The position numbers and the translations under genes are program-made. A stretch of 64,000 nt of DNA. It comes from Callorhinchus milii (Eukaryota). Every line of letters starts with the position of its first letter. Position 1 is the stretch's first letter. The stretch covers positions 8,372,001 to 8,436,000 of the forward strand of contig NW_024704742.1 in the NCBI RefSeq assembly GCF_018977255.1. Direction: 5' to 3'. Under the pieces are notes generated by a model. It saw nothing but the letters and a program-made list of their open reading frames with translations. It was not told where the DNA came from and searched no databases. Shown one piece after another: positions 5,902-53,290 of the stretch.

Positions 5902-6533
5902 GAAATCTTACAAAGCTGAGGTTGAACAGAGGAAGGAGGATGTGAAAGATTTTGTCACCTTGTTCCCTGTGTGGAGAGTGTGGATGATCAGCTACATCAG
6001 AGACCTACGAGAGATCGCAGACGACATTTACTCGATTCACAAACCTGGCCCGAGAGTGGGAGTCGGCCAGAGTGTGGCTGGTGGGGCTGACAACACTGCA
6101 GCTTGTGACACGGACACTGTAACCCAAACATACAGACAGGAAAGGGTTAATGATATCAGGGAACAATATGCAAAGGACAGCAGAGAAATGGCAGAGTGTT
6201 ACACAAAACTCTCACGAGCAGTTCGGATCTTGAAGCAATATAGTAAGAAATCAGAAACCACATTTCCTGGTGGAGCTGAGAGTCTCACTGAACACTTGGC
6301 TGTATTTGCTGCTGTGGCTGAAACAATGAACAAACAGGAGACAGTGACATCCAGGGCCGGGTCAGCAGCTCAGACAAGGCTGCCTTTCATATCATCTCTG
6401 ATCTCCAGAGTAAACGATGGGCATTATCTCAACCGTGGAGCCAGGGCAGATGTTGCTAAACATATTCACGGTGTGGCTGAAGTGATGGAGAATGAAGTGA
6501 TGGCGTATGAAGAGGTTTATAAACATCTGGAAG
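5902..6533 (+). CDS. APOL-like gene 1, A-type domain exon (phase 2 acceptor; internal phase 1 donor; unspliced read-through stops at 6601)
   Basis: aatattaacAG acceptor, then an open frame KSYKAEVEQRKEDVKDFVTLFPVWR...IRDLREIADDI...AKHIHGVAEVMENEV..YKHLE; donor AAG|GTACAG at 6534. Similar to the APOL-like exon at 38483 in the F-P..I..L.EIADDI and terminal A..I...A..M motifs. Confidence 0.75.
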
Positions 6534-6611
6534 GTACAGTCATCGTCATAGTCGCTTCCCTTTCTCAGTCACCCACGGTGTTCCTCAGGGATTTATCCTG
6601 AAATCCTATTT

Positions 6612-6973
6612 GGAGTACTGTAGTGTATTGGATAGAGCACTCACCTCACAAACAAGAGGACCCACGTTCAATTCCTGGGCGGGGAGAAACCTTACGCAAG
6701 TTTTCTTACTCCCTCTGTTTATCTAGTAGTAAGTAGGAACCTGGTTATTAGTCAATTGGCAGATCGCTTTCCATGGGTAATAATCCCTCAAAGAATAAAA
6801 ATAATTCTTTGGTCACTCAATTCATGACTGCTTGTGGGACACTGCTGTGCACAATTGGCTGCCTCATTCACCTACAAAATATAGAGTCAATTCACTTTAC
6901 AACATATTCTATGAAGCGCTTTGAGACATCTGAACAATGTGATAAGGTGCTATATCAAAAGCAAGGATTATTA
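6612..6973 (+). mobile_element. Older tRNA-derived SINE
   Basis: Diverged tRNA head and central GTGGGACACTGCTGTGCACAATTGGCTGCC motif. Confidence 0.75.
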
Positions 6974-8372
6974 TCACAGAATCATAAAATTATACAGCAC
7001 TGAAGGAGGCCATTCGGCCCATCGTTCTGTGCCGGCTGTTTGAAAACCGCTTCCAATTGAATCCTACTCCACCGCTCTCTCCCCATAGCCTGCAAGCCTG
7101 TCCTCCCAAAATTATTATCTAATATTATTATTATTCCCCAGTAATCCTCTTCTCCCTCAGTGATGCCATCCACAGGGGCGCAAGCTCCACTTCCACATGT
7201 ATCTGCATGTGGCCCTCGACTCCCGGCTCTCACTGTCCTGACACATCAAATCCTGGATGTGCCTCAACTTTCTGTAACTGACCAAAGCAGAAACCATTAT
7301 GCGAGACTCCACCAGCACCTCCTCACCTCTGGACCTCTCTGTCTATACCTCCCGCCTGCTCTCCAGCTCCATCTTAACCCTTTGGCCAGCTGGGACTATA
7401 ATTCTACACCTCGATATTTGGTAAAAAATCACATAGAATCATTGAATCTTACAGCACAGAAGGAGGCCATTCGGCTCATCGTGCCTGTGCCAGCTCTTTG
7501 AAAGAGCTATCCAACTAGTCCCACTCCCCCAACCTTACCCCATGGCCCCGCAAATTCAATAGATAAATAAATACATATACAATTTGTTTTGGTCAGCAGT
7601 GTGTCTGACACACGCGGAAACCCATTGCTGTGCTTAAGAGTCTCACAACCAAACTGAATATCCACATAGGTGAAAATTTCCATGTCTGGAATGGAATGCA
7701 CACTCTCTCCCTGGATGGACACCCACTGCTTATCTAATACTGGAGAGAATTAGGCAAAGGCTGGTGAGAGCCAAGGCTTTGGGACTCTAGACTGTGTTTT
7801 AAGGTAACTGCTGGAGTTTAATCAGCTAAAATCGCAGTTTGCCATTGAGAGCACCGTGTGGGAAGCTTCCCACTGTTTCTTCAGGTAGGACCATCCTACT
7901 CATTAGGGCTTTGCAGGGTGAACAGGATCTGAGTGTGAAGAGTCCCTGCCCCCAGTGAATGGTCTGCCCTTCCAGATCCTCCCAGTCAGCCAGGCTGTGC
8001 TGTGCTGTCATCAGCAGTGCCCTTGAATACTGTGGACCTGCCAGGCTCAGGAACCGGACGAGAGATCATCACAGTGTGGGCATTTCACCCAAAAAATATA
8101 CTGTCAATTCCCTTTACAGTATATTCTGTGAAGCGCTTTGAGGCGTCTCGAAGACATGATAAGGCTCTGTATCAATTGCAAGAATTATTATTATAGGATG
8201 GACTAAATTCCATTCCCAAACATGTCACCTTGGAGCCTGTTCAGCCCCGAGACCCTGCTTCCCCCACCCCAGACACACACACCCTACCCCCAAGATGCAT
8301 TGTCACCAGTTGGTCATTTAGCATCTGATAATAACCAGTAATAATGGCTCTTGTTTCTCCCTTATTTAACAG

Positions 8373-8397
8373 ACACAGTCAGCGCCACTAAGGACAG
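8373..8397 (+). CDS. APOL-like gene 1, 25-nt microexon (D)TVSATKD(R)
   Basis: tttctcccttatttaacAG|ACACAGTCAGCGCCACTAAGGACAG|GTATGT; phase 1 to 2; homologous with flanks to 20880, 48140 and 52461. Confidence 0.8.
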
Positions 8398-8467
8398 GTA
8401 TGTACAGATGTGAATGAATTACTTGTTCTCGTCCGACTCTGTCTGATTGGCTCTTTATCTGATTACT

Positions 8468-50365: not shown

Positions 50366-50994
50366 GAAAGCGTTTGAAGCTGAAGTTAAACAGAGGAAGC
50401 AGGATGTGAAGGATTTTGTCACCTTGTTCCCTGTGTGGAGAGTGTGGATGATCAGCTACATCAGAGACCTACGAGAGATCGCATACGATATATACTCGAT
50501 TCACAAACCAGGCACGAGAGTGGGAGTCGGCCAGAGTGTGGCTGGTGGGGCTGACAACACTGCAGCTTGTGACACGGACATTGTTACCCAAACACAGAGA
50601 CGCAAAAGGGTTAATGATATCATTGAGCAATATACAAAGGACAGCAGAGAAATGGCAGAGTGTTACATGAAACTCTCACGAGCAGTTCGGATCTTGAAAC
50701 GTTATGGTAAGAAATCAGAAACCACATTTCCTGGTGGAGCTGAGAGTCTCACTGAACACTTGGCTGGATTTGCTGCTGTGGCTGAAACAATAAGCAAACA
50801 GGAGACAGTGACATCCAAGGCCGGGTCAGCAGCTCAGACAAGGCTGCCTTTCATATTGTCTCTGATCTCCAGAGCAAACAATGTTAATCTCAACCGTGGA
50901 GCCAGGGCAGATATTGCTAAACACATTCATGGTGTGGCTGAAGTGCTGGAGGATGAAGTGATGGCGTATAAAGAGGTTTATAAACATCTGGAAG
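50366..50994 (+). CDS. APOL-like gene 3, A-type domain exon (read-through stop at 51074)
   Basis: tgtcctaacAG|G AAA GCG TTT; homology to 5902 and 19476 begins at the acceptor and ends at GAAG|GTACAG. Confidence 0.8.
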
Positions 50995-52460
50995 GTACAG
51001 CAACTATTTCAATGTACAGCACAGCTGAGGCAGGGTTCAGTGATGTAATATTCATGGTGGGTGCAGGAAGATAGCAGAGTACATCTGACCAAAATAAATC
51101 TTCTTATGTGTGTGCAGAAGAGAAGGGATTGCACTTTACATGTGAGGGGAGAGAAACCGTTCGTTTGAAAGTATTCTCAACTCTAACTCAGAACTTTGTG
51201 GATTGAGCTCCACATCAGGACTTTGAGTTCATCATCCGGGTTTGAAACTCGAGAGCAGCGCAGGGTTGGGGAGAGCACTGCAATGTCGGATGTGCTACCT
51301 TTTAGTTGAGACATTAAACCGAGGTCTATCTGTGCCATGTTCAGGTGGATGTTTAAATTCCACTGGCACTGTTTGAAAAGGCAAAGAATTTCTCAGGGTC
51401 AGGAAAACAATGCCCCAGAAAAAATTAGTTATTCACTTGTGGGATATTGCTGTGAACAAATTGGTAGCCACTTTTGCCTACAAAATGCACAGTCAATACA
51501 CTTTACAGTAAATCCTGTGTGTTCGTGTGTGTGTGTGTGTGTGTGGGGAGAGATGTGTAACACTGTAGCATTAGGAGGAGAGAAGTGACTGGGTAGAAAT
51601 TCCTGCCTTGGGGCTAAATTTTTTCTCTTAACACAGAAATTCTGAGTGCTCACAATTTGTCAAATTCTTAATCCCGGGCTTTAATTTTGAAGCTGGGTTT
51701 CCAGCGGTTTGGGACATCCTCCTGATGTGAAAGGCACAATACAAATATCATTTATTGTTCTTGTTGCTATAAGTTATTTTAAGAACTGAAAAAATGGGCT
51801 TCAAAGTTAGAACCAACTTCAACAATTTGCCAAATTCTGCACACTCTGAAAGAATAATAATAATCCTTGCTTTTGATATAGTGCCTTATCAAGTCATTCA
51901 AACAACAACAATTTGCATTTATATAGAGCTCTTCACCCCGCACGGCATCTCGGAGTGTTTAACAGTGGCGGAGCCCGATTGGTGGATCGCTTCACAGGAT
52001 ATATTATAAAGTGGATTGACTGTGTTTTTATGGGCAAAACGTGCACACAAAATGCACACAGCAGTGAGCCACAAATAGTCGTGGATTGAGCGACCAATCA
52101 AATTACAACCGGGTTCCTACTTACTGCGAGGTAAACACGTGTGTGGAATAAGGAAACTTGTAAAGTAAATTCGGGTGAAACTCCTGCACAATATCATCAA
52201 TGCTGAGTGTTCCCCACTCGCGGCTCCTGTGTGACCCACTGTGTTTGTCAGGAAAGAAGCCAAACCTTGACAGCAGTAGAGCTGCCACATTGCTGCTCTG
52301 CTCCTGTCGCTGCCAAGGGGAGAACGCTTTGTTTACCCGCGAGTGGTGAGGACATTCCCTCCTGTGTGGTCACTGTATCAGTCAGGATTGTGTCTGTTCT
52401 CTCTGTTGGTACCAGATAATAACCAGTGATAATGGCTCCTGTTTCTCCCTTGTTCAACAG

Positions 52461-52485
52461 ATACAGTCAGTGACAACGAGTACAG
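52461..52485 (+). CDS. APOL-like gene 3, microexon 2 (D)TVSDNEY(R)
   Basis: tttctcccttgttcaacAG|ATACAGTCAGTGACAACGAGTACAG|GTACGT; flanks homologous to 48140. Confidence 0.82.
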
Positions 52486-52590
52486 GTACGTACAGATGTG
52501 AGGCAGCTGCTGAATACACTGCCGGATATTGTGAATGAATCACTTGTTGTCACATGGCTCTGTCTGATTGGCTTTTTATCTCATTAACAG

Positions 52591-53290
52591 GAAAGAGAAC
52601 AAAGTTGTTCTGGAAAAGATAATTGAAACTTTTGAAAACTATTTCCCGGTCTGGAGAGAATGGATGAGAGGACACGTGAGAGGATTGCGAGAGATTGCAG
52701 ACGACATCGTCAATTATCCCAAACAAGACCCCACAGTGAATATTACTGTGTGTAGTAGAGTGCAACTCTCCATTACAGCAATAATTATTGCCCCTTTCTC
52801 ACTGAGCACGAGGTTGGTGCTTGTGGCCCTGGGAGGCAGGAAGGGTGTAGCTGAGGATGATGTGACTAGACACATGGGTGTGGCACAGACAGACAAACTG
52901 AAAAGAGTTCATAGAATCATAGAACGTTATAAAAAGGACAGCAGAGAAATGTCAGGTCTATTGATGAAGCTCTACAGTGCGAAACTGTTCTTTAATGATG
53001 AAATATTAAGAGAAGGTGCATTGAGTCTTGTCTTTGAGATATTCCCCAAGCACTGGCGTGCTTTTCCCACAGTTATCTCAGCAGCGACCAAACTGATGAT
53101 AGTAATGTTCAGGGCTGCGACAGGAGGGCTGTCAGGACTCTGTAATGTCTACTCTGGAGCAAACAATTTCTCTCCCTTTAACCTTAACAAGACAGGAGTT
53201 GCTAAGCAGATACGAGAAGCGGCTGATATGATGGAGGATGAGATACGAGCATGTGAAGAGGTTTATAAACGTTTTCAAAAGAAAAATTAA
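52591..53290 (+). CDS. APOL-like gene 3, D-type terminal exon
   Basis: tctcattaacAG|G AAA GAG; FPVWREWMRGHVRGLREIADDI..APFSLS..AKQIREAADMMEDEI; AATAAA at 53330-53335. Confidence 0.82.

Follow-up and report, generated by a model that had tools for sequence, protein, structure and literature searches.

The window examined here is a stretch of 64,000 nucleotides (nt) of the Callorhinchus milii genome (RefSeq assembly GCF_018977255.1, contig NW_024704742.1, C1 below, positions 8,372,001-8,436,000 of the forward strand), and it holds genes of the ApoL family (Pfam PF05461) in which a 25-nt microexon followed by one large domain exon recurs as a unit with phase-1 introns on both sides. These are probably fixed two-domain genes built from that phase-compatible unit, with a domain termed A in first position and a domain termed B or D in second. 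The exon phases that they share are due to common descent and not to independent coincidences, and the cluster to which the window belongs is a lineage-specific group of fast-evolving ApoL genes spanning ~0.37 Mb.

Exon anatomy, domain family and the joint between A and D

For the exon map, each implied splice site was read, after which lengths, phases and frames were computed by script; AG acceptors and GT donors are present at all of the exons given here, which lie on the plus strand. Gene 3 possesses all five exons of the arrangement, namely an ATG exon (47336-47357, 22 nt, MAQISRP, ending in phase 1), a first microexon (48140-48164, 25 nt, DIVNVTEDR, in the sequence context called class I below), A3 (50366-50994, 629 nt, phase 2 in and phase 1 out), a second microexon before D (52461-52485, 25 nt, likewise in a class I, i.e., first-position type, context) and the terminal exon D (52591-53290, with a divergent ApoL domain that has a single hydrophobic segment; AATAAA at 53330), and when fully joined they give an open frame of 466 codons. 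Gene 1 comprises the internal exon A1 (5902-6533, 632 nt, phase 2 in and phase 1 out, a hairpin-less ApoL domain), a microexon before B1 (8373-8397, 25 nt, class II context, peptide DTVSATKDR) and the terminal exon B1 (11321-12125, an ApoL domain with three hydrophobic segments, a hydropathy maximum of 2.83 and the stop at its end). Gene 2 has an ATG exon (14848-14869, 22 nt, MALIPTP, ending in phase 1), A2 (19476-20107, 632 nt), with no microexon between the two, a microexon before B2 (20880-20904, 25 nt, class II context) and the terminal exon B2 (24364-25117, an ApoL domain with a hydrophobic hairpin). These four microexons are the only ones in the whole window, their contexts giving 3-4 matches against 0.00-0.02 expected in shuffled sequence.

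A preliminary description of this DNA had stated that every large exon begins in phase 2 (AG/G), every microexon runs from phase 1 to phase 2, and every ATG-exon and A-exon donor ends in phase 1, all of which the script verified, the B and D exons also starting AG/G in phase 2 and finishing at a stop codon. The microexon plus domain exon is indeed a 1-1 symmetric unit, microexon plus A amounting to 657, 657 and 654 nt, each a multiple of three; because phase-1 introns bound it on both sides, the reading frame survives when such a unit is duplicated, inserted or skipped, and in-frame duplication is seen among the paralogues. The completeness ascribed to every cassette holds for gene 3 and fails elsewhere: A1 and A2 are without an upstream microexon and gene 1 is without an ATG exon, so that the full cassette exists once in the window.

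All seven of the long plus-strand open reading frames (ORFs) match the Pfam ApoL profile at E <= 0.002, five of them above its curated cut-off of 25.9 bits (A1 29.1, B1 32.9, A2 40.3, B2 28.9 and C, a separate gene described further below, 77.2). A3, at 25.2 bits, is just under the cut-off and D, at 18.3, is under it as well; A3 is 84-86% identical to A1 and A2, and D matches B2 with 33% identity at E 2e-23. Since the profile is spanned from ~position 43 to ~295 in each case, every large exon corresponds to a whole ApoL domain and not to half of one. The A and D proteins are only ~30% identical, and A shows an alignment gap of ~42 residues where B, C, D and the single-domain homologues have a hydrophobic hairpin, in keeping with 19-residue hydropathy maxima of 1.00 for A1-A3 versus 1.9-2.8 for B1, B2, C and D.

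A has the marks of an internal exon joined to the unit downstream of it. Similarity among the A paralogues is limited to the stretch from -7/-5 through +633/637 around the exon, and the read-through tails beyond the A donors differ; B and D finish 5-7 codons past a conserved EEVYK motif, at the point where A has its donor; and neither an ATG exon between A and the next microexon nor, between A3 and the D microexon, a relic of one was found. The closest named proteins are both from Callorhinchus milii and both labelled 'uncharacterized protein', being P0001 (XP_042194007.1, 485 residues, LOC103187865, Pfam ApoL score 56.4 bits) and P0002 (XP_042193789.1, 443 residues, LOC121849673); they belong to paralogues other than the window genes (P0002 to the one numbered gene 6 of the cluster), with A 78-90% and B 65-75% identical to the window exons. 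Together with P0007, these NCBI models read ATG exon, DTVSDTEDR, A, DTVSNTE.., B. A further model, P0006 (307 residues), joins A1 to B1 without the microexon and out of frame and then continues from a GT within B1 to A2, and was set aside as a prediction artefact that missed the 25-nt exon. No database protein containing D turned up at longer or near lengths (a word-filtered search, and as such weak evidence), so that the A+D gene appears to be unannotated.

Sequencing runs were mapped on window positions 33401-53400, the gene 3 side. In run X1, a fraction of 0.43 of the sampled words of 50366-53400 is present, which is about the exonic share, and a contig of depth 390 consists of 20 letters ending at 50994, then 21 letters, then 52587-53251, the 21 letters together with the next four being the 25-nt microexon. 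An A3 contig of the same run (50848-50994, 0 differences, depth 589) halts at the donor, a further record covers 50638-50877, and the pieces of intron have depths of 9-47. Run X3 is DNA-like, with an even depth of 4-11 across introns and intergenic sequence; the joint from A through the microexon to D is not in it, which argues against a retrocopy. This is the only gene joint seen among the joints listed, and the occurrence of an A-type exon before two different partners, B and D, already noted in the preliminary description, thus has at the DNA level both arrangements and, for D, one spliced RNA-like contig.

As regards the protein, an AlphaFold2 model of P0001 (mean predicted local distance difference test, pLDDT, 58.4) has four long helices in the A half, where most 10-residue blocks reach a pLDDT of 70-90 and the loops are of low confidence. 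Searched by sequence against the PDB, P0001 gave no match at E <= 1 and C only noise at E 0.5-0.8, and there is no signal-peptide-like start; the proteins would be intracellular, a soluble ApoL-derived bundle preceding a membrane-active ApoL domain. A search of 1.84 billion representative proteins listed 20 matches, of which those from Callorhinchus, four in number, are alone in being of the A type, and none has the A module in an unrelated protein. All six of the non-Callorhinchus matches with a Pfam ApoL hit have a single ApoL region, and a seventh that was scanned, P0021, has no ApoL match.

Probable fusion history and the surrounding cluster

The microexon contexts, aligned over 170 nt, fall into two classes. 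Those standing before A (genes 0, 3 and 6, class I) are 88-98% alike; those standing before B (class II) are 98-99% alike within genes 0-2 and 91% within genes 5-6, and reach 62-75% against class I. The context of the D microexon belongs to class I, with an identity of 96-97% to those around the first microexons in genes 0 and 6 as compared with 62-63% (genes 0-2) and 71% (genes 5-6) for the contexts before B, and its homology to class I extends from ~260 nt upstream to the D acceptor. Because its context is of class I while A and D are so divergent, the microexon plus D would have been a first-position unit, or have been converted by one, much later than the A/B junction arose. On these alignments, neighbouring paralogues appear to have fused on two separate occasions, once to give A+B and once to give A+D, and in-phase swapping of units at the DNA level appears supported.

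The course of events might be pictured as follows. In the starting gene, an ATG exon of 22 nt and a microexon of 25 nt would have preceded a single large exon with the whole ApoL domain; the last exon of an upstream paralogue would then have gained a phase-1 donor three codons past EEVYK, spliced to the microexon of the next paralogue while bypassing the ATG exon of that gene, with the in-frame outcome of ATG exon, microexon, A, microexon and B. The A+B gene would subsequently have been copied many times, and a second, younger fusion would have placed an A exon before a microexon plus D unit that retained its first-position microexon context. For A, which lacks the hairpin, a soluble bundle of four helices is predicted; B, C and D retain hydrophobic segments and are probably the parts that act on membranes. 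Duplication, inverted duplication, gene conversion, transposon insertion and decay would account for the variety of the cluster, in which genes 1 and 2 would be recent tandem copies, ~95% identical, that lost the first microexon, gene 1 having lost its ATG exon too.

The extent of the cluster was taken from searches of the genome (991.5 Mb, 1762 contigs) and from pattern scans covering 274 kb of the cluster plus locus L023, the loci past 8.616 Mb being known from the genome-search matches (besides the fetched 8722001-8732000). The A-exon search gave 25 matches that make up nine A-type loci at C1:8.36-8.66 Mb, one of them full of stops and one frameshifted, each with a same-strand partner 2.5-6 kb downstream, which is B at seven loci and D at two; every one of these partners is itself an ApoL domain. 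In genes 0, 5 and 6 the A exons have the common acceptor and donor context, and their lengths, derived by hand from the flanks, are 632, 626 and 626 nt. All 25 genome matches of the 167-nt microexon context are inside C1:8.357-8.728 Mb, which makes this context a feature of the cluster and not a dispersed repeat. In the scanned sequence, ATG exons of 22 nt number eight and canonical microexons of 25 nt number 11, and since a minus-strand single-domain ApoL gene of the cluster likewise has a 22-nt ATG exon and a 25-nt microexon, the series of ATG exon, microexon and domain exon is probably the ancestral unit. The question, raised in the preliminary description, of whether cassettes vary in number or order is hereby answered in part, as partner and completeness vary among the paralogues of the cluster.

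Among six A exons the synonymous divergence (dS) is 0.02-0.15 and the ratio of nonsynonymous to synonymous divergence (dN/dS) 0.56-1.44, and among four B exons dN/dS is 0.77-1.74 (best one-sided Fisher p 0.055). That frames stay open at such divergence suggests selection for function with rapid change, relaxed constraint being possible as well. A dS of 0.041 separates A1 from A6, less than the 0.078 between A1 and A2, its tandem twin, which indicates gene conversion.

Genes 1 and 2 form a tandem duplication of ~13.3 kb with 94-97% identity. No microexon was found upstream of A1 or A2 by pattern searches or by a Hamming scan allowing <=8/25 mismatches over 1-5901 and 14870-19475, and no plus-strand ATG exon of gene 1 was found in the window or in the preceding 10 kb, where the matches are on the minus strand and belong to gene 0, an A+B gene located just upstream of the window. 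A direct join of the gene 2 ATG exon to A2 is out of frame and meets a stop at codon 22. A replacement microexon (AG, 25 nt, GT) at 5822-5846/19396-19420, although in frame, was rejected, as 11-12 open candidates arise by chance per upstream region and its pyrimidine tract is poor; the same candidate is to be expected in the intron of gene 0 too, since gene 0 shares the A1 acceptor flank. 

The ATG exon of gene 2 sits inside an inverted copy of the 5' end of gene 0 (13440-14960, a G-rich minisatellite plus the ATG-exon region), recognised from alignments to locus L002: L002 7682-8633 matches window 14385-13440 at 90.7% and L002 7462-7662 matches window 14960-14760 at 99%, and the copy ends short of the gene 0 microexon. 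The tandem repeat concerned occupies 13786-14729 with a G-rich unit of 17-20 nt, an assembly gap (a run of N) lies within it at 14417-14441, and a second copy of the ATG region is present at L002 9173-9373. Genes 1 and 2 also carry a relic of the short intron between microexon and domain exon, in the form of an acceptor look-alike (…ctgattacag) ~70 nt past the microexon (20916-20977 versus 52530-52592), directly followed by a tRNA-derived short interspersed nuclear element (SINE), with the true B acceptor 3.4 kb further on.

A segmental duplication of at least 18 kb, with an identity of 96-98%, relates window 38573-56514 (from inside C to past gene 3) to G000:C1:8582154-8600000, 171 kb away. 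In the duplicate, C is cut short at its 5' end and gene 3 is broken, its A having a 1-nt deletion and three inserted letters and its D a 1-nt deletion. A third copy of the microexon plus D, near 8.727 Mb, is broken too and has no A within 4 kb. Upstream of six of the eight ATG exons, ~45-60 nt before the ATG (e.g., 47273-47290), there is a conserved T-rich motif (TTTTCTTCATTTCC and variants), which is not a canonical interferon response element; the canonical element, GAAANNGAAA, was not found in the 260 nt upstream of any of the eight.

C itself (38483-39140, plus strand, 77.2 bits, E 1.9e-21) is a single ApoL-domain exon of a separate gene. It has AG/G at 38482/38483 and in-frame ATGs directly upstream at 38446 and 38476, its start resembles that of the single-domain homologue P0010 (M-x-x-S-R-D), and no microexon context lies near it among the 25 genome matches. 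Given these ATGs and the P0010-like start, an upstream coding exon is perhaps not needed, and C may be a single coding exon. For the rest, the window is rich in fragments of long interspersed nuclear elements (LINEs), tRNA-derived SINEs and minisatellites. LINE endonuclease/reverse-transcriptase-like ORFs, named by reading their translations, are at 2206-2775 (-), 15610-16080 (-), 16773-17579 (+) and 62121-62642 (+), two of the four within the gene 1/gene 2 duplication, and minisatellite arrays at 34656-35162, 43656-44610, 55577-56378 and 57154-57857 (units of 34, 14-15, 49-154 and 28 nt, respectively) explain several long low-complexity ORFs.

Points against the fusion reading and its alternatives

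A number of points weigh against reading these loci as fixed fusion genes. The RNA-like nature of run X1 is a guess, and the RNA-like support comes from the gene 3 side, on which the runs were mapped. The spliced contig differs from gene 3 in three of the 25 microexon letters and in 12 of the 665 letters of its D part, and eight of the ten D-exon variant letters that were checked are those of the broken third D copy; as its letters differ from gene 3 and mostly equal that copy, the transcript would come from an allele or from an unassembled copy. The A side of the joint is only 20 letters long, and assembly from short words may in principle combine several paralogues in one contig. The database model P0009 (348 residues) runs through an A donor, and an AATAAA at 51093, 19 nt past the A3 read-through stop, may be either a relic of the 3' end of an old A gene or a live alternative polyadenylation site; taken together, the two make an A-only product possible. 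In the model of P0001, the B half is of low confidence, which leaves only the A half usable, and Foldseek found no fold match in the PDB at E <= 0.001, generic helical bundles being all that it returned. Lastly, several copies in the cluster are broken, and the dN/dS of A or B is never significantly above 1, which fits relaxed constraint also.

Were A and B (or D) separate single-domain neighbours, A would be terminal at its read-through stop and its donor a chance GT. The frames do extend to stops at 6601, 20175 and 51074, which are real, as had been described, a polyadenylation signal follows the A3 stop, and the non-Callorhinchus matches have their single ApoL region (6/6 of those with a Pfam ApoL match, P0021 having none); yet no ATG exon occurs from A to the following microexon, the A similarity ends within 7 nt of the donor with differing tails behind it, the junction is crossed by the spliced contig and the NCBI models join A to B, which leaves this arrangement highly improbable. 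The preliminary description had instead seen in each locus a combinatorial splicing system, in which regulated skipping or read-through would yield A alone, A+B or A+D, or B or D alone and so diversify immune effectors. All such forms would be in frame (248 codons for ATG exon, second microexon and D, 266 for ATG exon, second microexon and B2, and 251 for A-alone read-through), the ATG exon of gene 2 gives only the A-skipping product in frame, conservation is unusually high in the intron sequence flanking the microexons (88-98% over 170 nt among the class I contexts), and both the AATAAA just past the read-through stop and P0009, which continues through the A donor, could be read in its favour. 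Against it, the skip junctions that had been named, 47357->52461 and 14869->20880, are sound as to frame, and the joints listed for 33401-53400 include no skip or read-through junction, the sole strong one in the gene being the constitutive-type one from A through the microexon to D; the named public paralogue models are A+B, and the two isoforms seen (P0003 and P0005) differ in their first residues only; there are no shared constant exons as in the known variable-exon systems; and gene conversion explains the conservation of the flanks equally well. Mix-and-match splicing is thus possible as far as reading frames go, and regulated splicing as the basis of the diversity is unlikely, skipping or read-through isoforms at one locus not having been seen and the demonstrable variety being genomic (fusion, duplication, conversion and decay). 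The term 'immune effector family' used in that description is a fair deduction from ApoL homology, and an immune function of these genes might be supposed on the same grounds.

A reading that concerns genes 1 and 2 in particular, and which is compatible with the fusion explanation of the cluster, would have them as decaying relics (unprocessed pseudogenes) of the A+B type, the working genes of the window being gene 3 and perhaps C. It is in line with the loss of the first microexon from both genes and of the ATG exon from gene 1, with the stop reached at codon 22 when the ATG exon of gene 2 is joined to A2, with introns filled by transposon insertions, with dN/dS values of 0.86 (A1 versus A2) and 0.77 (B1 versus B2) and with the stops and frameshifts of other cluster copies; but the four domain exons are still open over 210, 210, 267 and 250 codons, starts at internal methionines yield 459 and 442 in-frame codons (the NCBI model P0002 starts likewise), and the ATG exon of gene 2 is in frame with its microexon and B2, so that we hold this reading to be possible and yet rather doubtful. 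One might further imagine, as a speculation of low probability, that the hairpin-less A unit is a removable cap: an ApoL protein would be toggled between a form capped by A (and so checked or retargeted) and a membrane-active form with B or D left bare, either by regulated inclusion or skipping of the microexon plus A or by losing the first microexon, as gene 2 has, the near-identical microexon flanks serving as splicing adaptors and as in-frame recombination sites.

Comparison with known systems

The A+B arrangement is already present in public gene models, and phase-compatible duplication is textbook matter; no published account of a two-domain ApoL, of shark ApoL genes as far as the listed titles show, or of an A+D or two-fusion history was found in a search outside of which subscription journals lay. 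With C. milii LOC103187865 and LOC121849673 the window genes share both the cluster and the A+B architecture (seven N-terminal residues, microexon peptide, A, microexon peptide, B). As an example of how genes are built when exons duplicate in frame, the locus is tidy yet ordinary, and it opens no long-standing question. The cluster also shows stepwise how a tandem family builds two-domain genes by what look like in-frame fusions, twice and with different partners. How ApoL proteins, innate immune effectors that act on membranes, are regulated is poorly understood, and a hairpin-stripped ApoL domain ahead of an intact one would be a natural test of whether an ApoL-like bundle can restrain or aim a pore-forming partner.

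The mammalian APOL1-6 cluster (PF05461) consists of tandem genes that evolve fast, are induced by interferon and encode innate immune effectors active on membranes; in these genes the domain sits in one large exon behind small 5' exons. The shark genes are alike in the Pfam family, in the tandem cluster, in a dN/dS near or above 1, in having the domain in one large exon after very small exons, and in the hydrophobic hairpin of B, C and D; they differ in that the shark proteins have two complete ApoL domains, the first of them without the hairpin, and no signal-peptide-like start. The modules of class 1-1 symmetric exon shuffling (Patthy's rule), the classical ones of which are mostly extracellular, resemble the present unit in having phase-1 introns on both sides, the A unit standing before two partners, whereas the shark unit moves only among the paralogues of one family in one cluster, is made up of two exons (25 + ~630 nt) and belongs to proteins that look intracellular.

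In systems of the Dscam, protocadherin and UGT1A type, an array of alternative exons is joined to shared constant exons and several isoforms show up in RNA; the shark loci have no shared constant exons, and each unit has its own terminal exon. Conjoined (read-through fusion) genes, for their part, are formed from tandem neighbours, and here the likeness lies in the donor of the upstream terminal exon that replaces the stop region, in the bypassed first exon downstream and in the context of the second microexon, which is homologous to that of the first; the shark fusion differs in that no relic of the bypassed ATG exon lies between A3 and the D microexon, and in that it is fixed and has been copied at least seven times.

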